Made by a program: the position numbers and the translations under genes. Below are positions 1,009-14,926 of a DNA stretch of 27,873 nucleotides, piece after piece. The stretch is from a virus. Its lineage: Duplodnaviria; Heunggongvirae; Uroviricota; Caudoviricetes. Positions within the stretch are counted from its first letter, which is position 1; each line of letters opens with the position of its first letter. Location of the stretch: positions 1-27,873 of the IMG/VR virus record IMGVR_UViG_2778261450_000008. One strand, given 5' to 3'. Under the pieces are notes generated by a model that was given only the letters and a program-made list of their open reading frames with translations, was not told where the DNA came from and did no database searches.

Positions 1009-1083
1009 GTCCTCTTAGTTAAATGGATATAACGAGCCCCTCCTAAGGGCTAATTGCAGGTTCGATTCCTGCAGGGGACACCA
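1009..1083 (+). tRNA. argW: tRNA-Arg (anticodon CCU); prophage attachment site (attL side)
   Basis: 75-nt sequence GTCCTCTTAGTTAAATGGATATAACGAGCCCCTCCTAAGGGCTAATTGCAGGTTCGATTCCTGCAGGGGACACCA; acceptor stem pairs with the 3' end, CCT anticodon in the loop, GGTTCGATTCC T-arm. An integrase gene follows immediately. Confidence 0.93.
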
Positions 1084-1208: not shown

Positions 1209-2402
1209 GTGGATAAAATAATTTTACCCTCCGGATTTTTACCCATGCTCACCGTTAAGCAGATTGAAGCAGCAAAGCCGAAAGAAAAACCATACCGCCT
1301 TCTCGATGGTAATGGCCTGTACCTTTATGTCCCTGTATCCGGGAAAAAGGTATGGCAGCTTCGCTACAAGATTGACGGTAAGGAGAAAATCCTGACCGTC
1401 GGAAAATATCCGTTTATGACTTTGCAGGAGGCAAGGGATAAGGCATGGACTGCGAGGAAAGACATCTCGGCTGGCATCGATCCGGTAAAGGCGAAAAAGG
1501 CTTCGTCTAACAACAATTCCTTTAGTGCGATTTACAAGGAATGGTACGAGCACAAGAAGCAAGTCTGGTCAGTAGGCTATGCAACTGAACTTGCAAAAAT
1601 GTTTGATGACGACATTTTACCTATCATCGGCGGCCTTGAAATTCAGGATATTGAGCCGATGCAACTTCTGGAAGTAATCCGCAGATTTGAAGATCGCGGT
1701 GCAATGGAGCGAGCAAATAAAGCCCGCAGAAGATGCGGCGAGGTTTTCCGTTACGCTATTGTCACTGGTAGGGCTAAATATAACCCGGCACCTGACCTTG
1801 CTGACGCCATGAAGGGATACCGCAAGAAGAACTTCCCGTTTCTTCCTGCCGACCAGATCCCGGCATTCAACAAAGCACTTGCAACATTTTCAGGAAGTAT
1901 CGTATCGCTCATTGCGACAAAAGTTTTACGCTACACAGCCCTCAGAACAAAAGAGCTTCGTTCCATGCAATGGAAGAACGTCGATTTTGAAAACAGGATT
2001 ATCACCATTGACGCCAGTGTGATGAAGGGACGCAAAATTCATGTGGTTCCGATGTCGGACCAGGTAGTTGAACTTCTCACTACGCTAAGCTCCATCACTA
2101 AACCAGTATCAGAGTTTGTTTTTGCCGGGCGCAACGATAAGAAAAAGCCAATCTGCGAGAACGCGGTGCTACTTGTGATAAAACAAATCGGCTATGAGGG
2201 TCTGGAAAGCGGTCACGGATTCAGGCATGAATTCAGCACGATTATGAACGAGCACGAATGGCCTGCCGACGCCATTGAAGTGCAACTGGCACATGCCAAC
2301 GGCGGTTCTGTGCGCGGGATTTACAACCATGCGCAGTATCTCGATAAACGCAGGGAAATGATGCAATGGTGGGCGGACTGGCTTGATGAAAAGGTGGAGT
2401 GA
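1209..2402 (+). CDS. intS: Prophage tyrosine integrase (site-specific recombinase); likely true start is ATG at 1245
   Basis: The track ORF begins on GTG at 1209. From MLTVKQIEAAKPKEKPYRLLDGNGLYLYV it matches my recollection of CPS-53 IntS. C-terminal HGFRHEF and IYNHAQY are consistent with a tyrosine recombinase catalytic region. It sits directly beside the tRNA. Confidence 0.9.
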   Translation: MDKIILPSGFLPMLTVKQIEAAKPKEKPYRLLDGNGLYLYVPVSGKKVWQLRYKIDGKEKILTVGKYPFMTLQEARDKAWTARKDISAGIDPVKAKKASSNNNSFSAIYKEWYEHKKQVWSVGYATELAKMFDDDILPIIGGLEIQDIEPMQLLEVIRRFEDRGAMERANKARRRCGEVFRYAIVTGRAKYNPAPDLADAMKGYRKKNFPFLPADQIPAFNKALATFSGSIVSLIATKVLRYTALRTKELRSMQWKNVDFENRIITIDASVMKGRKIHVVPMSDQVVELLTTLSSITKPVSEFVFAGRNDKKKPICENAVLLVIKQIGYEGLESGHGFRHEFSTIMNEHEWPADAIEVQLAHANGGSVRGIYNHAQYLDKRREMMQWWADWLDEKVE

Positions 2403-2555
2403 TCCACCTTAACCACTATCGAAGAGCGCAAAGCCTAGCAATCCAGTGCAAAGCTTTGTGTGCATCAGTTTTGTCTCATCAACCACAGCAAGTCATCGAT
2501 CGATTGAGACTTGGATGATAGACTTCATGCCTTTGATTATTAGCTGATAGAAGAA

Positions 2556-2918
2556 ATGTTAAAGCTATTTGCAAAGTACACCTCGATTGGTGTGCTGAAC
2601 ACACTTATACACTGGGTGGTTTTTGGTGTATGTATCTATGTCGCGCATACAAACCAAGCTCTTGCAAACTTCGCAGGTTTTGTTGTGGCTGTGAGTTTTA
2701 GCTTCTTCGCGAATGCAAAATTCACATTCAAAGCATCAACTACAACGATGCGCTACATGTTATATGTCGGGTTCATGGGAACACTGAGTGCAACTGTTGG
2801 ATGGGCTGCTGATAGATGTTCACTTCCTCCAATTGTCACTCTCATCACCTTCTCAGCCATCAGTCTTGTGTGCGGTTTCGTCTATTCAAAGTTCATTGTC
2901 TTTAGGGATGCGAAATGA
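2556..2918 (+). CDS. gtrA: GtrA-family bactoprenol-linked glucose translocase (flippase)
   Basis: 120-aa, four predicted membrane helices, matches my recollection of YfdG/GtrA; first gene of a three-gene operon after int, with a 4-nt overlap with gtrB. Confidence 0.85.
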
Positions 2919-3841
2919 AGATATCTCTTGTAGTTCCTGTCTTCAATGAAGAAGAAGCAATACCAATTTTTTATAAAACGGTACGTGAATTCGAAGAGTT
3001 GAAGCCATACGAAGTGGAAATTGTTTTCATAAATGACGGCAGCAAAGACGCTACGGAGTCAATTATTAATGCTCTGGCTGTTTCAGATCCTCTAGTTGTT
3101 CCGCTGTCATTTACACGAAACTTTGGTAAAGAACCAGCATTATTCGCAGGGTTAGACCATGCAACAGGCGATGCTGTTATTCCAATTGATGTTGACCTGC
3201 AAGACCCGATTGAGGTTATTCCTCATCTTATTGAAAAGTGGCAGGCAGGTGCTGATATGGTGCTTGCTAAACGATCTGACCGCTCAACGGATGGCAGACT
3301 GAAGAGGAAAACCGCCGAGTGGTTCTATAAGCTTCACAATAAAATCAGCAATCCGCAGATCGAGGAAAATGTTGGTGATTTCCGTCTGATGTCTCGTGAA
3401 GTCGTAGAGAACATTAAGCTCATGCCAGAACGCAACCTTTTCATGAAGGGTGTTTTGAGTTGGGTTGGTGGTCGCACTGATATCGTTGATTATGCCCGCG
3501 CAGAACGTGTTGCTGGCAGTACCAAGTTCAACGGATGGAAGTTGTGGAATCTTGCTCTTGAGGGAATTACGAGCTTCTCGACTTTTCCGCTACGTATGTG
3601 GACTTACATCGGCCTTCTCGTCGCTGGCTTAGCATTTACATATGGCGCATGGATGATTCTGGACACTCTGGCGTTTGGAAACCCGGTTAGAGGTTATCCA
3701 TCCCTGCTAGTATCTATACTTTTCCTTGGTGGTATCCAACTCATTGGTATTGGTGTTCTTGGTGAGTACATTGGACGAATTTATATTGAAACAAAGCAAA
3801 GGCCGAAATATCTTTTAAAGAGTTCTAAAAATGAAAAATAA
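2915..3841 (+). CDS. gtrB: GtrB-family bactoprenol glucosyltransferase (GT2 family)
   Basis: 308-aa with an N-terminal GT2 signature (VVPVFNEEE...INDGSKD...DVDLQDP) and C-terminal membrane helices; YfdH/GtrB-like. Confidence 0.88.
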
Positions 3842-5291
3842 CATTAAGATTTACTTATTTATCACATTCTTACTTGCGCTCCCAATTATAATTGCAAATG
3901 TTTACTACAGCGATGATATGAGCAGAGCAATGAGCGGCGTAACTTATTGGGGAATTGATGGTAGACCATTATCAGATAGATTAATGATTATTCTTAATTT
4001 TAACAATCATCTAACTGACTTGGCTCCATTGCCTCTAATAATAGCATGTTTGCTATTGTCTATTTCATTTTATCTATTTCACATTAAATTATTTAATTCA
4101 GATAATCATTATCTTTTTTTACCGTTGTCATTTTTATTAAGTCCATTTATAATCGAACCTCTATCATACAGGTTTGATAGCTTAACCATCTCAGCTTCGA
4201 TATTTTTTGCATTTGCATTTATTTGTCTAAACTATAAAAACACGGTAATTTCATTTATTTTACATTCTAGCTTTATAGTTATCTTATTTTCATTTTACCA
4301 AGCATCTATTAATATAGTTTTTATATTAATCTCTATAGAAATGTTTGTTAACATAAAGAATAATAAAGAGCCAACACACATAATAAAGTCAATTGCATTT
4401 CGAATTATCGAAGTATTGGTTGGCGCTGTTATCTATATGAGGGTTGTACTGCCGTTAACTCATGTTAATGACAATAGTCAAAATCACCCAGGAGTTGCCA
4501 CAAATATTATAGATGTAATTCATAAGAACTTTATTGCGTATTATGATTTCTACACTAGAAATATAATCCCTGAGCATGGGAGTGAATTATTAATTGGTAG
4601 TTTTATTGTATCATTTGCATTTGCCATTAAATTGGTTTTTGTTTACATTAAAAAACACAAGTGTAATGCTGCTGTTTTTTTATCTTTGATGGCAGTGTTA
4701 TCATTACCTTTGACTTTTATATCATCAATGATTTCATTACTTCTCCTTGAAAACACTCTAACAACTTTTGCAAGGGTTTATATTGGGTTTAATGGTCTTT
4801 TTTTATTCATCTTCACCCTTTTATATTTGGGAATAAATAACACAAGAATTGTCAACGGTATATTTTTAATATTCCTTTTTTATATAATTACTCTTTTTTA
4901 TTCATATGGAAATGCTTTGCGAGCACAAGATGATAAAAATAAATACATTGCTGAAATTATTGGGCTAGCGTTAAAAAACATACCCGAAAATAGTGTTAAT
5001 GTTATGTTTAATGGTAGTTCACCAAAATCCCCTATACTACTTAATTCAGAATTAAATTATCCACTATTCAAAACAATAGTACTCGACTACTTCTATAACT
5101 GGTATGGCTCTCATGTATACCTCAAGATTAGAGGAGTAAATCAAAATTATCCTGATTTTTCCAGTAAAGAAGTATCTATGTTCATGAAGGACTATTGTAA
5201 ATCAACACTAATTTATTCATCTAATGATATTAAAATTTATCGTGATAATGAGAATGTAATGGTGAGTTTTGATGATTCTTTATGTAAATAA
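3831..5291 (+). CDS. GtrC-type serotype-specific O-antigen glucosyltransferase (polytopic membrane protein)
   Basis: 486-aa, very hydrophobic, strongly AT-rich codon usage, third position of the gtr operon and overlapping the gtrB stop. The specificity subunit is normally the most divergent and most recently acquired. Confidence 0.7.
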
Positions 5292-5306
5292 ACACCACAA
5301 TTAAGC

Positions 5307-5337
5307 AAAAGACCATCTCCTAAAGATATGGTCTTTT
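5307..5337. terminator. Bidirectional intrinsic terminator between gtrC and the tailspike
   Basis: Perfect 10-bp inverted repeat AAAAGACCAT / ATGGTCTTTT with an 11-nt loop; A-run on the left and T-run on the right, so it can act on either strand. Confidence 0.5.
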
Positions 5338-5349
5338 GCAGAAACAATT

Positions 5350-5380
5350 AAAGCCGTTGAATATAAAAATTAACGGCTTT
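5350..5380. terminator. Second hairpin in the convergent gtrC/tailspike intergenic region
   Basis: 9-bp inverted repeat AAAGCCGTT / AACGGCTTT with a 13-nt AT-rich loop; the T-run is weak, so termination is uncertain. Confidence 0.3.
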
Positions 5381-5387
5381 CTTATAG

Positions 5388-7193
5388 CTAAATTAGTTTA
5401 ACATCTACATTTCCTGCCGTTATCGGATCTTCAAGAACAGATGCTATGAATCTTACGACTGTGACAGCGCCAGTACCACCATAAACATATCCTTGAATTA
5501 GGTTTGGTGTTGTAGAAGAATCTCGACGAAAGTTAGATGAATTTACTGTTATGTACAAATTAAATGAATTTGTGCCATTGTTCTCAAACCTAAATATTGG
5601 CAAAGAAATTGGTGGATTTGCTGGGACAACCTGAAATTGACATCCATTTATCACCATTGTACCGTCATAAATAGATGGCGAAGCTTGGACTACTGCTATT
5701 CTTTCCCCCTTTACATTCTCACTTCCACAACTATTCATTGTTATTCCATGAGGGTTATTGAAAAGATAAGCTCTTGATATTGTCTCAGTAGTACCAGACA
5801 TAGGAAATATAGAATCAGCAGTACAACAATTTAGTGTTGTGTACTGTTGAGCGTCAATTTCAAAACCAATTTGATAATTAACAACTCCCACCTGGTCTAG
5901 AAGATTACTTGTTCCAGAAAGGTTATATATACCATCCCTCACTTTACCTAAATAAAAACCAGTAAACTGCCCAATAGCCAAACCTAAAAAACCGCACCGT
6001 TCAAATATATTTGAGAAGCAATCTTCACCCCAAAAACCATAATACCCACATTCTACACGCAAGTCTCTTAACAAACTTGAAGCCATGTAAGGAGAGTATA
6101 TTCCATATGTTGGTTGATTATTTCTATCTATAATTTCATGACGTCTTAAAGTAACACCTTGTATCTCTACGCCTGTAGCATAGTTATCACTCTCAACACC
6201 ATCTACAACGAATTTTTTTGGAAGAATAATCAGCAGTGCATCCACTGAGACTCCAGAAATTATGGTGTTCGCGTTATTTGTTGTTTTAGAGATAATCGTC
6301 TTATTTTGACCTTGACCTATGATTCCAGACCATGACTTTACAACAGGACTTTCGGAGGTTAGATATTCACCTGACATAAAATGAATAGGGGTATTATTAT
6401 CATATCCATATGATAAAGCCTTTGATATTGCAGAGGCGTTGTCAAAATCATTTATCGGTTTTGCTCCAAAATACTCTACCCATATCTCACCATCAACAAC
6501 CCTCCTCCAAGCAAATTTACCTGAACTTGGAACAATAACAATCCCTCCATCATCGGCAATCTGTGATGTGCTATTGTCGAAAGACTGGAAGTAACCACCG
6601 CCATAATGTTTTTCAGTTGCTGTAGCACTTGCTGCTGAAGCTACATAGACAATTTCTCCAGCAACTAATGGTATTGAATCCCTCAGCGCATCTAAATTGA
6701 GAAAGTTGCCTATGTGGCGAAAGCCATCATCAGCAGCCAAGTCACTTCTCAACGTATCTATTTTATGGGCATTATTGTCAAGAGCATCTTTGACAGTTTC
6801 ATCTCCATAACCAACCAGAGATGCGCCATCAGGGCCAGAAAGCTCAGCCCTTAACTGATCTGGAGAATATTTCAGTAGATCAGGATAATAGAATTGTTGT
6901 GCGCCATACGCATCATATACAGCCATGGAGTGATTCTGTACAGTTACGAACTTGGTAATCTGTCCGTTATATACGGGGTAACCAGCAGCATTAATGATGA
7001 TTGGTTGCGAAACAGGAACGTGAGAACCGTCTTCGTTCTCTATATAAACCTGAATCTGGTTTTCAGGATTTACCGGGTCAGTGTCAATTTTACCGATATA
7101 AATTTTGCCATTGGCTACAGCTTTAAAAGAACGAGCCATAGTGAAGAGTTGAGAAGGCATGCTTACCACAACATTTGCGGTGATATCTGACAT
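5388..7193 (-). CDS. Tailspike protein: P22-type N-terminal head-binding domain fused to a distinct receptor-binding (probable polysaccharide depolymerase) domain
   Basis: The track ORF starts at 7241 but a GGAG Shine-Dalgarno precedes the ATG at 7193. From there [46 protein letters not shown]... closely matches my recollection of the P22 gp9 N-terminus. The remainder does not match P22 and its 3' part is visibly AT-rich. Confidence 0.85.
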
Positions 7194-7314
7194 TTCATTG
7201 CTCCAGACGAATGATATGATGCAACCATGATTTGATTGCATACCGAAATGGTACTATTGAGTATTTATCCAGTAGGTTACGATGCCATTCCACCCAACTG
7301 GTGAGGCATCAAGG
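7194..7314. promoter_or_regulatory. Divergent intergenic region between tailspike and mnt; candidate promoter/operator
   Basis: 121-bp AT-rich spacer between two divergent starts. It contains TTGATT (7233-7238), a TACC-N5-GGTA inverted repeat (7241-7253) and TATTGA/TATTTA elements. Inferred from position only. Confidence 0.3.
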
Positions 7315-7575
7315 ATGTACAGCAAATACGACGAGGCGCAGTTTCACTTGAGACTTCCGCATGAACTTCACGCGAAAATTAAACAGCGCGCGAAGATGAA
7401 TAACAGGTCACTGAACTCAGAGATAATTGCAGCGATTGAAGAATCATTGGCTAAACAAAGCTTTGCATCAGTTTACATTGACGATGCAGAGCGTATGGCA
7501 GAACAACAATCTGATATGGTTAAGAAAATTGTCTTTGATACGCTCAAAGAGCTATATAAAAAAGACAGCAGCTAA
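7315..7575 (+). CDS. mnt: Mnt-like ribbon-helix-helix repressor (Arc/Mnt family); alternative start at 7282
   Basis: C-terminus DAERMAEQQSDMVKKIVFDTLKELYKK matches my recollection of P22 Mnt (DAERLADEQSELVKKMVFDTLKDLYKK); the N-terminal RHH region aligns from MYSKYDEAQFHLRLP. No arc or ant ORF is adjacent. Confidence 0.75.
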   Translation: MYSKYDEAQFHLRLPHELHAKIKQRAKMNNRSLNSEIIAAIEESLAKQSFASVYIDDAERMAEQQSDMVKKIVFDTLKELYKKDSS

Positions 7576-7595
7576 CCATCAGTTACGGAGGATTT

Positions 7596-7673
7596 ATGCA
7601 AAGAGATATGCTGAATATTGCGTTATACATATTTGGTTTTTGCACGTTCCTGGTGTTTGCGAAGCTATTCTGA
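7596..7673 (+). CDS. Candidate 25-aa hydrophobic membrane peptide (MQRDMLNIALYIFGFCTFLVFAKLF)
   Basis: ATG preceded by GGAGG at ideal spacing (acGGAGGatttATG), 20 nt after the mnt stop; single predicted transmembrane helix; its 3' end overlaps the gp16-like gene on the opposite strand. Too short for the supplied track. Confidence 0.35.
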   Translation: MQRDMLNIALYIFGFCTFLVFAKLF

Positions 7674-9662
7674 CAACGCATCAGACTTGGCACCCTGAGT
7701 CAGGGCGTTAATGGCCTTTTGCGCCTGCTGCATGGCTTTCTCAAACGCTGTTGATCCGCGTGGGGTGTTTGCCATTCGGAGCATTGCATTTCTGAATGGC
7801 TCGCTCTCATAGGCGCGAGTAAGAAGTCCGTAGCTTACCGCTGCGCCAGTTGTCGCCGGGTTCATTGCCGTCCCATATCCGATAATGAACGGGATGGTTT
7901 GCTGCCCTGTTGGTGTTGTTACTGCTGCTTTTGCAGCCTGCTGCGTGGATTGCAGGTAGTTTTTCAATCCTTTCAGATAAGCGGCTTCATGACCTTTAAA
8001 TGTGATGCCAGTCTGGTTTTGCAGGATATTAAGCTGCCGAAGGAACTGGTCAGGGGATCCGCCAGATTTCTCCATCGCCTTTCCAATGATGCCATTGCGC
8101 ATTTGCGCCCTGCCAACACGACCAACTGAGTTATACAGCGTCTTAATTTCCGATTTGTTCTTGCTGAATAGCATGTTGTTGACAACTTCCGGCGTCAGGT
8201 CGCCTTTCATGAGAACATTCTTCAGCCTGGTATTCTTTAGTTTCGCAGCTTCGTCAGCATAGACGGCATTGGCCTGCTGATATTTACGGAGGGTATCGTT
8301 GCCAAGATTCTGACCAATGGCACCATTGATATCGTCAGTCATTGCCTTGTAAACGCGCTGAATGGCAGCATCGGAACGGTTTGGTAACACTGGTCGCTCA
8401 CCCTTTACGTCCATTCTGAACTGGCTGCGCAGATCGCTTAATTGCTTCAAATCCAGATTTACCGGACCATCAGGACCAGCATTGCGAACAAGCTCATCAC
8501 GATAGGACTGAAGTTTTGAAATAGTCTCGTTATCAGCAACCTTACCAAGCTTCTGCAGGTTAGATATTTCTGTATCAATCTGCTGAATTGCTCGCGCAGG
8601 CTGAATGTTTACTCCAGCCATAGCATTCTGAACCTGCTCCAGTCGATTACCGGCGGCACGACGAATTCCTGATGTTTTCGCTTTAAGGCTGTCAATAACA
8701 ACCGCTGGATCATACTCGCCGAATTTATCAGCAAATCTCTGCACCAACTGACTTCTCGCTTCCTGTTGCGTTGCTCTCATTCCGCTTGTGCCAGCCAGTG
8801 GTATATTTTCTGCTGTAGTCTGCGCCATTTTCCCGACGCGGGAAGTAGGCTGTAACAGGTCTGTGGTGTGCAGAGGAACTCCTTCACGCTCTGCAAATCT
8901 GATAGCCTGCTGCGCTTCTGGCGCAATAGAACCACGAACGCCACGATAAGCAGCACCTAATCCACGTCCGGCAGCGTTAATAGCACCGCCAGCCAGCACA
9001 CCAACGCCTAAATCGGTGGCGAGTGCTTCCGCATCATCTTTCGCACTATTTGCAGCAAGTGATCCAACTGCGTTTTCAGCGAGAAGGCGAGTTGCCCCCT
9101 GAGCAATTCGACCAGCAAGTGTTGGTGCCTGTGTTGCCGCTCTCTCAACGCCAGCAGGAGTGAGGTAAGGCAATGCTTCAGCAAATACCCTTCCCTCTGT
9201 CGTTTGTGGAGTCATCGCGCCTTGCTGAAGGCCAAAGTCCTGCTCTAATCCCTGCGTTGTTACTCGTGGCGCTGGTTGATATGTACCATCGCCAATGCCG
9301 AGTTTACCGCCAGCCCAAGCCGCCGCGCTTGTTACAGCATCGGCAACTGATGCAGGTATGTTTGCCACGTTCACGCCAGCCTGCACCAGTCCGCGACCAG
9401 TCTCTTTCACTGCTTCACCAAGATCAGACATAAATCCACTTTGCTGTGGTTGTAGCTGTGCTACTGGTTGCTGTGTCTCCACTGGCTGCACAGATGGCAA
9501 TGGATAGGCTGCATAGAAAGCTTGCTTAGCCTGCTCTGCATTTTCTCCGGCTTGCGGGGCCACGACTTCATTGAAGTATTGCTCCTGAGCCTGCGCTTTT
9601 TGTTCTGGTGCTAACGCCTGATACTGTGGAGAGGCGATAACATCTTTCCATGCTTTAGCCAT
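7665..9662 (-). CDS. Ejection (internal virion) protein, P22 gp16 positional homologue
   Basis: 665-aa Ala/Gln/Gly-rich protein, last of three consecutive genes in the position of P22 7-20-16; its ATG overlaps the stop of the upstream gene (TAATG). Assigned by synteny and composition. Confidence 0.65.
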   Translation of the reverse strand: MAKAWKDVIASPQYQALAPEQKAQAQEQYFNEVVAPQAGENAEQAKQAFYAAYPLPSVQPVETQQPVAQLQPQQSGFMSDLGEAVKETGRGLVQAGVNVANIPASVADAVTSAAAWAGGKLGIGDGTYQPAPRVTTQGLEQDFGLQQGAMTPQTTEGRVFAEALPYLTPAGVERAATQAPTLAGRIAQGATRLLAENAVGSLAANSAKDDAEALATDLGVGVLAGGAINAAGRGLGAAYRGVRGSIAPEAQQAIRFAEREGVPLHTTDLLQPTSRVGKMAQTTAENIPLAGTSGMRATQQEARSQLVQRFADKFGEYDPAVVIDSLKAKTSGIRRAAGNRLEQVQNAMAGVNIQPARAIQQIDTEISNLQKLGKVADNETISKLQSYRDELVRNAGPDGPVNLDLKQLSDLRSQFRMDVKGERPVLPNRSDAAIQRVYKAMTDDINGAIGQNLGNDTLRKYQQANAVYADEAAKLKNTRLKNVLMKGDLTPEVVNNMLFSKNKSEIKTLYNSVGRVGRAQMRNGIIGKAMEKSGGSPDQFLRQLNILQNQTGITFKGHEAAYLKGLKNYLQSTQQAAKAAVTTPTGQQTIPFIIGYGTAMNPATTGAAVSYGLLTRAYESEPFRNAMLRMANTPRGSTAFEKAMQQAQKAINALTQGAKSDALSE

Positions 9663-11056
9663 TAATCACCCCATAGTGAAGAAAAGTTACTGCTGGCTGC
9701 TGGCTGTGATACCTGTGCAGGTTGAGATTGCTGCCGCTGAGATTTACCAACATTAACGTTATATTGTTGGTTGTAATTGTTGGTGTATTCCTGAATCTCA
9801 CGAATCGACTGCTGCATAGCCTCCGGGCTTGAATAGTCAATCTGCGGCATCCCCTGAAAATACATCTTCGCTTCTGCAACGGTGTTAATACCACTGGCAC
9901 CCATGTCCCTTGCTGCCGCCACACCCTGATTCTGCATTCTGCCCTGAATCCGTTGTGCTGAGTTATATAACTGGCGCTGCTCTTTTCCTGTTAATCTGCT
10001 GCGAACATCAGCACCAATTGCTGGATTACCTGCACCGCCTGTCATTCCTGTCATGAAATCGAGAGCAGAAGCGTCTGCATTTGCGATCGCGTCGATATCC
10101 TTCTTCATGGCATAGTTTTGTGCTGATGCAGACGATGTTGCAGGCGCTGCGATTGAACTGGCAGGAACGCGAACCATATTCCCCTCGTTGTCGATGCCTT
10201 CGTAGAACGCATTTGCCCCAGCGCCGTGAAGTTTCCCGCCAACCGTTACAGTTCTGCCATCTGATAACTGAACTGTACGCTCATCATTCCCAGCGGTTCC
10301 TCTTGTTGACGCTCGCTGCATTGCCAAATCCTGCCCGCGTCGCGCAGTAGAAGCAGATAAATCCTGACCGCGCATCGTGATGTTCTGACCTCGTGCTGTT
10401 AGCGCCTCGCCAGCCTGATTGCTGCGGATTGTCTCTGCAAGTTTTCCGCGATCAATCTCACGCCCAACGATTCTGTCTTGCGCCTGAAAATATTGTTCTG
10501 GACCAAGTGCAGCCATTCCAAGGTGATCAACAAACTCTGTGAAACCTTGTGGATTTTGCTGATACATTTTCGCCACATCCAGAGGGTCTACTCCGGCACG
10601 AGTAAGCTCAGATGAGTTGTTCTGCAACCATGACATCATGGCTTCTGGAGATGAAGCTGCGAGTCTGGCACTTGCTGCCAGTGTACCGACAGTGGAACGC
10701 TGGTCTTCATCGACAAATTTCATGCCGTTTCTTACAGCGTCAAACTGCTCAGGATACTGTGATGCCAGCTTTCGCATTGCATCGCGGTCACCAGATGTAT
10801 ATGCATCAGCATAAGCCTGCTGAAACTCTTGCTGCCGCTTCTGCTGATCCATCTGCTTATACATATCCATGACAGATGAAATGCCCTGCAAAGCCTGCAA
10901 GCCAACGTTATTACGTCCTGAACGCTCCATCTCGTTATTCTGTCGAATGTATGCAAGCGTGGCGTCTGCATCACTTGCTCTTGGAGCGTTGGAGTTCATG
11001 CCGCCTAACCCGGCAAGAAGCGCACCTGAATTACCAGCCTGTTGCCATGTAGCCAA
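9662..11056 (-). CDS. Ejection protein, P22 gp20 positional homologue
   Basis: 464-aa, about the size of P22 gp20, Gln/Ala-rich. Apparent TTG start preceded by a strong GGAGGTG Shine-Dalgarno. Assigned by synteny. Confidence 0.65.
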
Positions 11057-11068
11057 GAGACACCTCCA

Positions 11069-11728
11069 TTAAAAAAGTGAACCAAGAAGACCGACGCCAG
11101 CACCAATTGCTGTACCCCAACCAGGCATGATTGCAGTACCTGCAGCTGCACCTGCTGCCGCTCCACCCAAGGCGCTCTGAAATCCTGATGGTTTATTCGC
11201 ATTAGCCGCAGATGCTGCCGCCTGCTGTTGATACAATTGGCTGACGTTGTTAGCGTAGTTCTGTCCGGCATTTGCCTGACCTGTAAGAGCACCAAGGCCG
11301 ATATTTGCCAGATTGTTGTAGTTGTTCATCTGACCTGACAGCCAGTTTTGACCGAGTGTAGGTGCGATTGCTGCTAACTGGTTTCCTGTTGCTGTGGAGC
11401 CTAATCCACCCGTTGCCTCTGCTGCTGCCAGACTCTGGTAACGCGCCTGCCCTGCAAGGTCTTTATACTGCTGGGAGTTGTAATACTGGTTAAGCGCCTG
11501 ACCTTGCCCCTGAAGAGAGGAAAGATTTTGCAACTGTGATACGTACTGCTGAGCGAGTGGCGTGAACGGTGCAAGGTTTTGCATGTTCGTCTGCCACATT
11601 TCGCGCTGCAGTTCGATGCCCTTTTCAGTTGCGCGTGCCTGGGCTTTAGAGCCGGAGTCGCTGCCACCTTTCATATACCCATTCATGGGAAGCAATTTAT
11701 TCTTGAAGCTTTCGCTAAGTACTAACAT
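11069..11728 (-). CDS. Ejection protein, P22 gp7 positional homologue
   Basis: 219-aa with a Gly/Ala-rich C-terminus, in the gp7 position between the gp14-like and gp20-like genes; start could be 11728 or the downstream MNGYMKGG. Confidence 0.6.
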   Translation of the reverse strand: MLVLSESFKNKLLPMNGYMKGGSDSGSKAQARATEKGIELQREMWQTNMQNLAPFTPLAQQYVSQLQNLSSLQGQGQALNQYYNSQQYKDLAGQARYQSLAAAEATGGLGSTATGNQLAAIAPTLGQNWLSGQMNNYNNLANIGLGALTGQANAGQNYANNVSQLYQQQAAASAANANKPSGFQSALGGAAAGAAAGTAIMPGWGTAIGAGVGLLGSLF

Positions 11729-12185
11729 TTAATAGCTCCTCATATTTCGAACGAGGTAATTGATAGAGGGTGATTCCTACCGGTTTTCCGTTACTCATGT
11801 ACGCATCATCAAGGTGACCAACACGGGTAGCGCCAAGCAAACGGATAATTGCCCGTCCGTATTTCGTGGTGTCAGGAACCATGGTGATGCTGTTAAGGAA
11901 TGGTGAGTTTTCGAGAAGCCATTTGCAGAATAATCGATGCCCTTGCAGTGCATATTCGCCACGGAATCCGGGGTCGTACACCGCATGGCATTCAACAATG
12001 CTATGCCAGAAGTTACGCACTTCATGAACGCCGGCCAGCACTAATCCTTCGTAGATGCCGAGGTATACCGCATCAGGCTTGATGTAGTATTTATCTCTAC
12101 TGTCTACGATATTTCCCGTGTTTTCTGGATTGTTGAGGAATTCTGCAAGCTTCACCGGATTATCGATGAGCTTTATTTCCATCAC
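11715..12185 (-). CDS. P22 gp14 positional homologue (virion-associated protein)
   Basis: 156-aa ORF between the needle and gp7-like genes, overlapping both neighbours as expected for translational coupling. Confidence 0.6.
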
Positions 12186-13030
12186 TGCTCCGCAATGATT
12201 TTGATGGCTGTGGCAGTAAACGCCGCACCATTTGACTGAATGGTTAACGTGCTGCCATTTGTGGCAAGAAAGCCGTCTTTATCCACACTGAAGAACGTAG
12301 CTAACAGGATGTTGTCGGTTGTTGTCGCCGAGTTGCGACTGCTTACCAGTGTGTCAGGAACAGAACCGGAGAATGTTAGCTGCATTGACCTGTTGGCGGT
12401 TCCGCTGGGCCACGTCCCGACGATCGACAGCTTGAAGAACAAGGTTTTGTTCTCGTTGAACACAACCATCTTGTTGTTAACGGTGTCGAAGAATGGTGCC
12501 AACGCGCCGGATGACGGCGTGAGCGTTTTCAGCAGGCTAACAAGGTTGGTCGGCGCTGTCGGGATGGTTACAGATACGCCAGAGTAAACAACCTCTGACT
12601 TCTTGCGAGTAGTGGCATACTCCAGAGCATCGATGCGCGTTTCATGGTCTGAAAGCGTGTTTTGAATGGCGACAACTTCATCCGTCAGGTAATCAATATC
12701 GTTTTCTGCTGTCGTTAATCGTGAATCAAGGCCGACTATCGCCGCTTCTGCGTTAGTGATCCTTGTTTCGTGGTCCTGAATCTTCGCTTCAGCTGATGCC
12801 AGTCGAATTTCGTGATCGACAAGAATCACATCCTGCTCATCGTTCCTGACTTGTGCGTCATAAGCTCCCTGTCCGGCCTCGTTGGCCTTGTTAGCCACAT
12901 TACCAACATCAGTACCCTGTGCAATAACGTACAGCAGATATGACTGCGAGAAGATATTACGCGGAAGGACTGATGTGTCGAGTCGTGTAGCCTGAATGAT
13001 TACCGGCTCATTGAGATTCGAATCAGCCAT
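12182..13030 (-). CDS. Tail needle (P22 gp26 family) with a C-terminal knob-like extension
   Basis: From the ATG at 13030 (TAATG overlap with the gp10 stop) [43 protein letters not shown] closely matches my recollection of the P22 gp26 N-terminus; a coiled-coil repeat region follows, then about 120 extra C-terminal residues. Confidence 0.85.
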
Positions 13031-14448
13031 TACTCGATCCTTATCTGGCAGCCAGACAGAGTGACAGGTGACTTCGTGATAACGCGCAATTTGAATCCGA
13101 CATTTTTCCTTATTCGCCCGACACGCTTCCACAAAACGCGTTTGTCGTAAACGAACGGTTCATTCTGCTCAATCATCTGCTCACGCCCGTAATTGATGCC
13201 GTCAGTGGTTGCAGAGAGAAAAAGGCGGTCAGCATACTGCGCAACTCCAGTTGACGATTCAACTTCAAGGTCGAAAACTCTGGCGTTATCCGCTTTGAAC
13301 AACGGAGTAAACAGCAGGTGTTCCTGCTGCTTGTCGTACTGGCTGCTGATATCGAACTGCAATTTCCCGGTCACGGATTCCAGCTTATCGCCGCACGTTA
13401 TCTGATTGCCTTCGTAAATGAAGTCGATAGCGCGGTACACATCGTCATACAAGCCAGTTTTCAACACACACCATTGCGGACCATTGGCGCTTGAAGATGC
13501 GTCGTACACGAGAACATGGCGCGCAAGATGGATAATCAGCAACTCATGCGCATCAAATCGTAGAGACTCCATCACGCCATCAGCCAGTTCATCAGCAGTG
13601 TAGGAGCGTAGTATTTTCTCAATGCTCGCGCTGGCGATTGGTGATACCTGACCGGAGCCGATGATATACACAGACGGCGCACCCGTTGCCGGATTGCTGA
13701 TGAACGCATAGGAATCAGCAAACGGCGTTTTGCAGTAAGTTCCGGCAATGCCTTTCTGCACCATCAGCGATGGCTGTGCGACATACAACGCGGCACCAAC
13801 AGTGGTTGCACCAGTCAGGGAGAAATATTCAATCGTTGATGAACCAAAGCAGACAATGAAGTCTCGCCATGTTCCGATGCCGATGATACCGTCAGGCTGA
13901 GACTCGGCACGATATTGTGCGCTGTATCGGTCAGGATGTGATTCGTCTTCAAGGTCAGTGATAAACCATGAATCAGTGCCGTCTTTTGACCACGCATAAC
14001 GCCCACGTAAGCGTGTAATGTCGCGGACTGAGCCTAACTCATACTGAGTGAATCCGCTATCAGTAGGCCAGTTTGAGACGGTTTTAACCGTGCCATCATA
14101 GCGATACTCGACCAGTTGCCCGTTAACGCCAACCGCCTGTGATGTCCTACCATGAGCCAATGATACACGACCACTTCCGGCAACATCGCCGACTTCACTT
14201 TCTCCCTTATACAACTTGCCACCACACACGCGATAAACAGCATTCTGCGCCATGTTGTACTCGACGCCGCGAGATACACCGTTCACATCAGAACGTTTGG
14301 CAATGCCCGGGAATGAGCGAAGATATCCGCTGCTGTTGAGGATTTCTTTGGGTGTAGCCAACATATTCACTGGCAGATAGTCGATATAGTCGGCGTTTCG
14401 GAAGTCTTTGCCGACACCTTTCATAAGCGGAAGTTGCTGAATCGGCAT
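13030..14448 (-). CDS. Tail/head-completion protein, P22 gp10 homologue
   Basis: 472-aa; [49 protein letters not shown]... is near-identical along its length to my recollection of P22 gp10. Confidence 0.9.
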
Positions 14449-14926
14449 TTATTCGCTCCCGTTATCGCAAGGTTCCTTCCGGTGGAAGTAATTCCAACCG
14501 TTCCACTTCGCCAACTGATTACCGCTACCAACAGGCATACGGTTTGGATAACCGGACTTACATTTAGCGGCTTTTGCTCTGTCCATTGCAGACAGTTTGA
14601 CGAGTCGCTCTTTCCCGTATCTGGCAGTGGTTATAAGTTTTGCTGACGCTTCCAGCGCATAATCCGGAGCAATGCGGCAGGCAAGGTTGAAAATGACGGC
14701 ATTGATAGCGTTATTTGATAAACCGTGCTCATCGCCCGGATCTGGAGCGACATCTGCATCAGCGAAAATGTAGCCAACGTTGATACCTGGTGACGCATCA
14801 GCGCCAAGCCATTCCGCCATCATCATTTCAAGGTCGTTGACACCATCTTCCATGGACTGAGGTTCGACATCGGTTAACGTGGCATTTGATGCCACACCGA
14901 GCTTACGTAATGCCGCAAGAACTAAA

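Follow-up and report, generated by a model that had tools for sequence, protein, structure and literature searches.

A P22-type tailspike with an uncharacterised PF27114 receptor domain, exchanged together with gtrC, in an Escherichia coli prophage

The subject of this analysis is a tailspike gene on the minus strand of a 27,873-nucleotide stretch of viral DNA (IMG/VR record IMGVR_UViG_2778261450_000008, Caudoviricetes; the whole stretch is called the window here), together with the O-antigen modification genes gtrA, gtrB and gtrC that lie beside it at 2556-5291. The encoded protein combines a P22-type virion anchor, a conserved neck and a receptor-binding domain that is exchanged as one contiguous, AT-rich block with gtrC. 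It is probably the tailspike of an IME10-like, P22-type temperate phage residing at E. coli argW, and would act as an O-antigen endoglycosidase co-swapped with a masking gtrC. Receptor-domain exchange behind conserved anchors is well documented, including among E. coli O-antigen-specific tailspikes (PMC10408124). The contributions of the present analysis are the exact boundaries of the exchanged cassette, the finding that exchange of the receptor domain takes gtrC along with it, and the near-identity of the E. coli and Cronobacter copies. The current understanding of P22-like phages is left unchanged; a well-documented pattern is extended.

Tailspike gene and domain architecture

The tailspike gene is complete (5388..7193, minus strand; 601 codons and a stop, from the open reading frame list and the translation), and the exact protein recurs in 128 blocks of public assemblies. 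The reading frame can be extended by 16 codons to an ATG at 7241, where no obvious ribosome-binding site is present. The true start is likely to be 7193 rather than 7241, because the ATG there has a GGAG motif 7 nucleotides ahead of it and yields a product beginning MSDITANV, as in P22 gp9. The upstream extension (7194-7241) and a 98-residue antisense frame overlapping the head-binding region (6894-7190, plus strand) look like mechanical artefacts of open reading frame calling. A dead gene in a decayed prophage is ruled out for the window, as the frame is intact, the virion block is complete and IME10-like, and the protein is unchanged in many assemblies.

Codons 1-114 (6852..7193, minus strand) encode a P22-type head-binding domain, the virion anchor. 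The Pfam family Head_binding (PF09008) covers residues 1-113 along all of its profile positions (1-113 of 113, E 7e-66), and the PDB matches are the solved N-terminal domains of Sf6 gp14 and P22 gp9 (Sf6 gp14N and P22 gp9N). By direct blastp, residues 1-114 are 91% identical to CUS-3, 90% to HK620, 85% to Sf6 and 73% to P22. The first-pass annotation, which had described the first ~110 residues as nearly P22 gp9, thus named the right type of domain but overstated the resemblance to P22 itself; CUS-3 is closer.

The anchor is followed by a conserved neck, codons 115-222 (6528..6851, minus strand), which is delimited by the translation, by alignment profiles and by the point, 6528, at which DNA identity to another E. 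coli P22-like prophage (L016) stops. Its C-terminal motif ends in DDGGIVIVP and is common to family members with differing anchors and differing receptor domains. Residues 181-220 show 95-100% identity even in the Hafnia protein P0002, whose N-terminus is unrelated, and positions G198-G200, F202 and D215 are invariant in an alignment of 86 sequences. Two junctions appear in the alignment identity profiles, at about residue 114, where P22-type similarity ends, and at about residue 222, where the neck ends. A junction directly after the head-binding domain, where the swap had been placed, is seen at ~114, but it was at ~222 that the recent exchange in E. coli took place. The end of the neck (codon 222) is the likely point of recombination.

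The receptor-binding domain occupies codons 223-601 and the stop (5388..6527, minus strand). When residues 115-235 and 236-601 were compared with the tailspikes of P22, Sf6, HK620 and CUS-3, no blastp match with E < 0.1 was obtained. The earlier impression that the C-terminal part is unlike the P22 endorhamnosidase is thereby borne out (E > 0.1 for residues 115-601), and the suggested comparison with Sf6, HK620 and CUS-3 likewise revealed no similarity past residue 114. None of 50,697 phage records reaches 45% identity to residues 115-601, and an already characterised tailspike is ruled out on both grounds. The best phage-database match to the receptor domain is OR844942.1 (‘Enterococcus phage Efm 3-10’, 111,375 bp), at 45017-46324, with 44% identity over 91%. 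Its host label, or else its purity, looks doubtful; every other relative of the receptor domain comes from Enterobacteriaceae or other Gram-negative hosts.

Although this domain had been called unrecognised, and is indeed uncharacterised, it is a member of Pfam PF27114 (Phage_tail_beta), a large family in enterobacterial prophages. The assignment to the exact protein (E at most 1e-5) comes from a precomputed Pfam table; a local copy of Pfam did not return PF27114. All 120 relatives retrieved from 5.8 billion proteins carry PF27114, and the N-termini of receptor-domain relatives are of at least three kinds, namely the P22 head-binding domain, Tail_spike_N (PF18668; Hafnia and Cronobacter), and neither of these. 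Members from E. coli, Cronobacter, Citrobacter, Hafnia, Proteus and Enterobacter have the neck motif and the acidic positions D/E460, E470 and E492 in common; the receptor subtype in the window differs in being at least 72% identical only to copies from Cronobacter, Hafnia and Proteus. Public assemblies of both E. coli and Cronobacter sakazakii contain the exact protein, which is named ‘MULTISPECIES: phage tailspike protein [Enterobacteriaceae]’. NCBIfam holds no model matching the tailspike or GtrC, a scan of species-representative genomes for the receptor domain yielded no confirmed relative, and no experimental characterisation was found for any PF27114 member retrieved. Judged by these comparisons, the receptor domain is a new, uncharacterised subtype within a recognised family.

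An AlphaFold2 model built from 86 homologues has a predicted local distance difference test score above 90 for residues 160-601, which form a long run of short strands; the head-binding domain was modelled poorly. In structural comparison, phage tailspike depolymerases take the first three places, and the best matches include the capsule depolymerases 24qi, 6eu4, Depo32 and K2-2 TSP. Klebsiella K2 depolymerases and the Pantoea enzyme WceF are also among the Foldseek matches. On the basis of the strand pattern and the match list, the receptor domain is predicted to form a right-handed parallel beta-helix like that of tailspike depolymerases, together with a C-terminal beta region. This agrees with the first-pass annotation, which had found the composition consistent with a beta-helix; Gly, Asn, Ser, Thr and Tyr together make up 37% of residues 115-601. 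The Acinetobacter depolymerases among these matches (Belisarius gp86, PDB 24qi; AS12 gp42, PDB 6eu4) differ in that they are 20-21% identical, have other anchors and hosts, and act on capsule substrates.

Codons 460-492 (5718..5816, minus strand; translation checked) contain three candidate catalytic carboxylates, D460, E470 and E492. The D/E460, E470 and E492 columns are acidic in 99-100% of 86 family members that are 29-80% identical. The residues aligned with these three are E/D/E in 24qi and E347/E355/E377 in the PAS7 tailspike, in which E347 and E377 lie in an acidic pocket predicted by its authors to be a glycosidase site (PMC11522302). The spacing between E470 and E492 is 22 residues, which is estimated as about one helix turn, so that the two would be stacked on neighbouring rungs. 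No paper on 24qi (Belisarius gp86) was found in the literature. From conservation and alignment, D460, E470 and E492 may act as the catalytic residues.

Of the characterised relatives, the tailspikes of TL-2011b, PAS7 and Ro103C3lw stand nearest; an O103 target is predicted for them. They belong to the same family and fold, with 35%, 31% and 27% identity, respectively, over 87-89% of the domain, carry the same receptor domain behind different anchors, and have acidic pocket residues that align with those described here (PMC11522302, PMC10408124). The three are 43-51% identical among themselves and the domain in the window falls well below that range, so O103 specificity should not be assumed for it.

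Compared with the P22-like tailspikes of Lederbergvirus (P22 gp9, Sf6 gp14, HK620 gp9 and CUS-3 SiaK1), the protein is alike in its head-binding domain (73-91%) and in the position of its gene, which follows gp16 and the immI remnant and adjoins O-antigen conversion genes. It is alike also in predicted beta-helix architecture and in modular C-terminal exchange. It differs in that none of the four shows detectable similarity to residues 115-601, and in the ~108-residue conserved neck between anchor and helix, which is common to PF27114 proteins behind other anchors. The receptor domain may have a different surface polysaccharide specificity, as the first-pass annotation had predicted.

Exchange of the receptor domain together with gtrC

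The three gtr genes lie on the plus strand in the order gtrA, gtrB and gtrC, and all three score above Pfam cut-offs. They are gtrA at 2556-2918 (PF04138, GtrA flippase-like), gtrB at 2915-3841 (PF00535, bactoprenol glucosyltransferase) and gtrC at 3831..5291, which is convergent with the tailspike gene and encodes a serotype-specific O-antigen glucosyltransferase of 486 residues (PF14264 Glucos_trans_II, E 3e-23; PHROG 4829 GtrC-like, E 2e-76). The product is 24% identical to P22 GtrC and of the same length, 486 residues. GtrA and GtrB are conserved from one serogroup to another, and each serogroup has its own GtrC (PMC7685785). Between gtrC and the tailspike gene, which converge, the spacer (5292..5387) holds two hairpins, AAAGACCAT..ATGGTCTTT and AAGCCGTT..AACGGCTT, which were read by eye directly from the sequence and were not called by a simple terminator scan. 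The spacer shows 0 differences in all related loci.

The exchange is seen directly in the comparison with L016. Its DNA is ~95% identical to the window over 2319-3820 (gtrA and gtrB) and over 6528-7209 (tailspike codons 1-222), and no DNA match exists between the two at 3821-6527. At the protein level, identity to L016 is 95% for the head-binding domain, 94% for the neck, 97% for GtrA and 98% for GtrB, as against 36% for the receptor domain and 27% for GtrC. Because the identity breaks at 3820 and at 6528, the exchanged unit is tailspike codons 223-601, the spacer and gtrC, a contiguous AT-rich segment of ~2.7 kb (window ~3821-6527). The neck and gtrB, which flank this cassette, can serve as recombination arms. 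The receptor-domain swapping that the first-pass annotation had proposed is thus observed, both here and in the relatives found behind unrelated anchors. The gtrABC operon that it had reported in the same prophage is present at 2556-5291, and the link is tighter than proposed, with gtrC lying inside the swapped segment.

The composition of the segment is distinctive. Overall GC content and GC content at third codon positions (GC3) are 40.4% and 36% for codons 1-114, 44.1% and 30% for codons 115-222, and 36.4% and 23.2% for codons 223-601. The flanking phage genes gp16 and gp20 have a GC of 50-51% and a GC3 of 44%, and the receptor domain differs from gp16 with p ~2e-11. The AT-richness noted earlier for the 3' third of the gene is real but extends across the entire receptor domain. 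The GC of gtrC is 28% and its GC3 24.0%, close to the 23.2% of the receptor domain (p = 0.84) and apart from the 44% of the phage backbone.

Among 5,426 complete E. coli genomes, neither the full tailspike gene nor a gtrC of the window type was found (0/5,426 each), and gtrA and gtrB are present in 732 at 88-96% DNA identity. One E. coli isolate from a chicken carries an IS1203-truncated copy of the tailspike gene whose receptor domain is 97% identical; its neighbour is an acyltransferase-family gene instead of gtrC, in the same position as the O-antigen acetylase gene oac next to the Sf6 tailspike.

The cassette is found at three chromosomal sites, namely argW-yfdC and beside the bio operon in E. 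coli, and beside proBA in C. sakazakii. At argW-yfdC, the window and one further locus (L008) are 99.9% identical over 17 kb. The bio genes next to the second copy are 100% identical to those of E. coli; in the proBA-site genomes proBA is just 78% identical to E. coli, and the source names attached to the exact proteins identify this group as C. sakazakii. Over gtrC, spacer and tailspike (3831-7193, 3,363 bp), the window differs from the C. sakazakii loci by 0-2 nucleotides, with 0-1 in gtrC alone, whereas the same comparison yields 76 differences in 1,275 bp of gtrA and gtrB and 12 in 354 bp of the mnt region. Since the cassette is so nearly identical and gtrA and gtrB are not, the nucleotide counts point to a very recent passage between E. 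coli and C. sakazakii.

More distant pairs show the same arrangement. Receptor domain and GtrC are, respectively, 85% and 85% identical to those of the window in Hafnia paralvei (L014), 78% and 67% in Proteus mirabilis (L013), and 72% and 86% in other C. sakazakii copies (L010 and L011), and in each of these loci a convergent gene for a 486-residue GtrC lies directly downstream of the tailspike gene. The Hafnia copy has a different N-terminal anchor, and its phage is not a P22-type podovirus, since it encodes a tape-measure protein. Receptor domain and gtrC are thus co-inherited in these loci.

Recognition and masking of the O-antigen

From these observations a mechanism can be proposed. By analogy with P22, residues 1-114 would mount the presumed trimer on a P22-type tail hub. 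The beta-helix of residues 223-601 would bind the O-antigen of the host and cleave it as an endoglycosidase through the carboxylate cluster, for which D460, E470 and E492 are the candidates, and cleavage would let the virion descend to the outer membrane. In a lysogenic cell, the same O-antigen would be glucosylated by GtrA, GtrB and GtrC and so masked from the phage's own tailspike and from other phages with the same receptor. As the receptor domain and gtrC lie in one contiguous cassette, a single recombination event could switch the recognised receptor and the matching receptor modification together. The functional model is the Salmonella prophage BTP1, also P22-like, whose GtrC prevents the O-antigen from being shortened in a tailspike-dependent manner and thereby shuts out superinfecting phages (PMC4413052). 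BTP1 differs in that its GtrC is reported to work without GtrA and GtrB (PMC4413052); the GtrC of the window is predicted to be of the PF14264 glucosyltransferase type and has its own gtrA and gtrB.

Extended to all loci, the proposal is that receptor domain and gtrC together make up one mobile cassette of ~2.7 kb, a receptor plus receptor-masking unit with the neck and gtrB as arms, that moves between phage morphotypes and genera, the E. coli/C. sakazakii passage being very recent. We hold this broader proposal to be evenly poised. If it is true, an O-antigen backbone usable by one tailspike type is common to certain strains of E. coli and C. sakazakii, and probably to some of Hafnia and Proteus, and a temperate phage could change both the serotype of its host and its own superinfection protection in one crossover. 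A literature search returned nothing usable on O-antigens common to Cronobacter and E. coli, or on Cronobacter gtr prophages.

Several points weigh against an O-antigen-cleaving tailspike functionally matched to its gtrC. The nearest characterised relatives are just 27-35% identical, and the closest protein of solved structure, at 20% identity, has capsule rather than O-antigen as its substrate. Further, tailspike and gtrC adjoin in most P22-like phages, so that some co-inheritance is expected from linkage alone. The structural point leads to the alternative that the beta-helix targets a capsule or other exopolysaccharide (K antigen, colanic acid or O-antigen capsule), like the CUS-3 endosialidase or the Acinetobacter and Klebsiella depolymerases. 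The four best structural matches named above are capsule depolymerases, the neck region matches PHROG 4250 ‘EPS depolymerase’ and the Pantoea stewartii enzyme WceF, and CUS-3 itself joins a P22-type anchor to a capsule-specific domain. The repeated pairing with genes of an O-antigen-modifying type speaks against such a target, which is considered improbable. That the beta-helix only binds, or is a lyase, epimerase or esterase rather than a glycoside hydrolase, appears still more doubtful. Its three closest structural counterparts are all tailspike depolymerases of phages, and three invariant carboxylates across very different receptor domains fit catalysis better than specificity. CBA120 TSP2 and AS12 gp42 are hydrolases.

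The point on linkage can be taken further: receptor domain and gtrC might co-travel only as neighbours at the end of the late operon, with no functional matching. A tailspike gene followed by gtrCBA is standard for P22, both genes are carried along whenever recombination runs from the conserved neck to the conserved gtrB, and the contexts examined number only six. Against this stand the persistence of the pairing at 67-86% across four genera, and in a tape-measure-encoding Hafnia phage of another type, the unusual GC3 that the receptor domain shares with gtrC, and BTP1 as an experimental case of functional matching (PMC4413052). Mere neighbourhood is accordingly an unlikely explanation, and an O-antigen endoglycosidase paired with a GtrC that shields its receptor is the reading preferred here.

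Tailspike receptor domains decide which serotypes can be infected and are used as typing and detection reagents. An uncharacterised subtype would add a new specificity to this repertoire and, as E. coli shares the exact protein with the infant-formula pathogen C. sakazakii, one reagent might serve both. The linked exchange of receptor domain and gtrC would also be a clear example of temperate phages keeping recognition and masking matched, and would give a simple rule for predicting cognate tailspike/GtrC pairs from sequence.

Prophage context

The left end of the prophage lies next to yfdC. Positions 1-1200 of the window are 100% identical to the E. coli yfdC-argW region, with the tRNA-Arg(CCT) gene argW at 1009-1083 (plus strand, ARAGORN), and an IntS-type integrase with Pfam integrase domains is encoded at 1209-2402 (plus strand). 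The backbone has 95.7% DNA identity to the P22-like phage IME10 over two thirds of its length. The virion block is complete, with gp16, gp20, gp7 and gp14-like genes among others (Pfam P22_gp7, Inj_translocase and DUF2824 upstream of the tailspike gene), and the tailspike gene stands at the end of this P22-type block (gp7, gp20, gp16, tailspike).

Upstream of gtrA, positions 2274-2555 are the most divergent part of the block, with 25-79 differences per 282 bp relative to the related loci; gtrC and the tailspike gene carry just 0-2 differences over 3.36 kb. This region should hold the gtr promoter. A promoter scan of 2300-7800 gave 23 promoter-like sites, not above the shuffled expectation of 20.2. 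Paired GATC sites are a mark of phase-variable gtr operons; at 2390-2570, upstream of gtrA, only two isolated GATC sites were seen.

On the other side, a Mnt/Arc-type ribbon-helix-helix repressor gene (7282..7575, plus strand; Pfam Arc and Repressor_Mnt) is divergent from the tailspike gene, in the position of mnt in P22, and represents an immI remnant; arc and ant are absent next to it in the window. P22 has the same gene order, gp16, mnt, tailspike, gtrCBA. In the related loci L002-L007, an extra 161-codon open reading frame with no Pfam match lies between gp16 and mnt (9057-9542), at the position of sieA in P22. The window and L008 are without it and have ~90 bp between mnt and gp16 (window 7576-7664).

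P22-like prophages are known in C. sakazakii (PMC3741392). In five of the C. sakazakii loci (L003-L006 and L009, ~4300-14640) the prophage is largely decayed, retaining int, xis, a few fragments of early genes and, in some cases, part of gp16; the mnt-tailspike-gtrCBA block is intact and almost nucleotide-identical. This suggests that the block has been retained in decayed Cronobacter prophages, perhaps for the function of the gtr genes.

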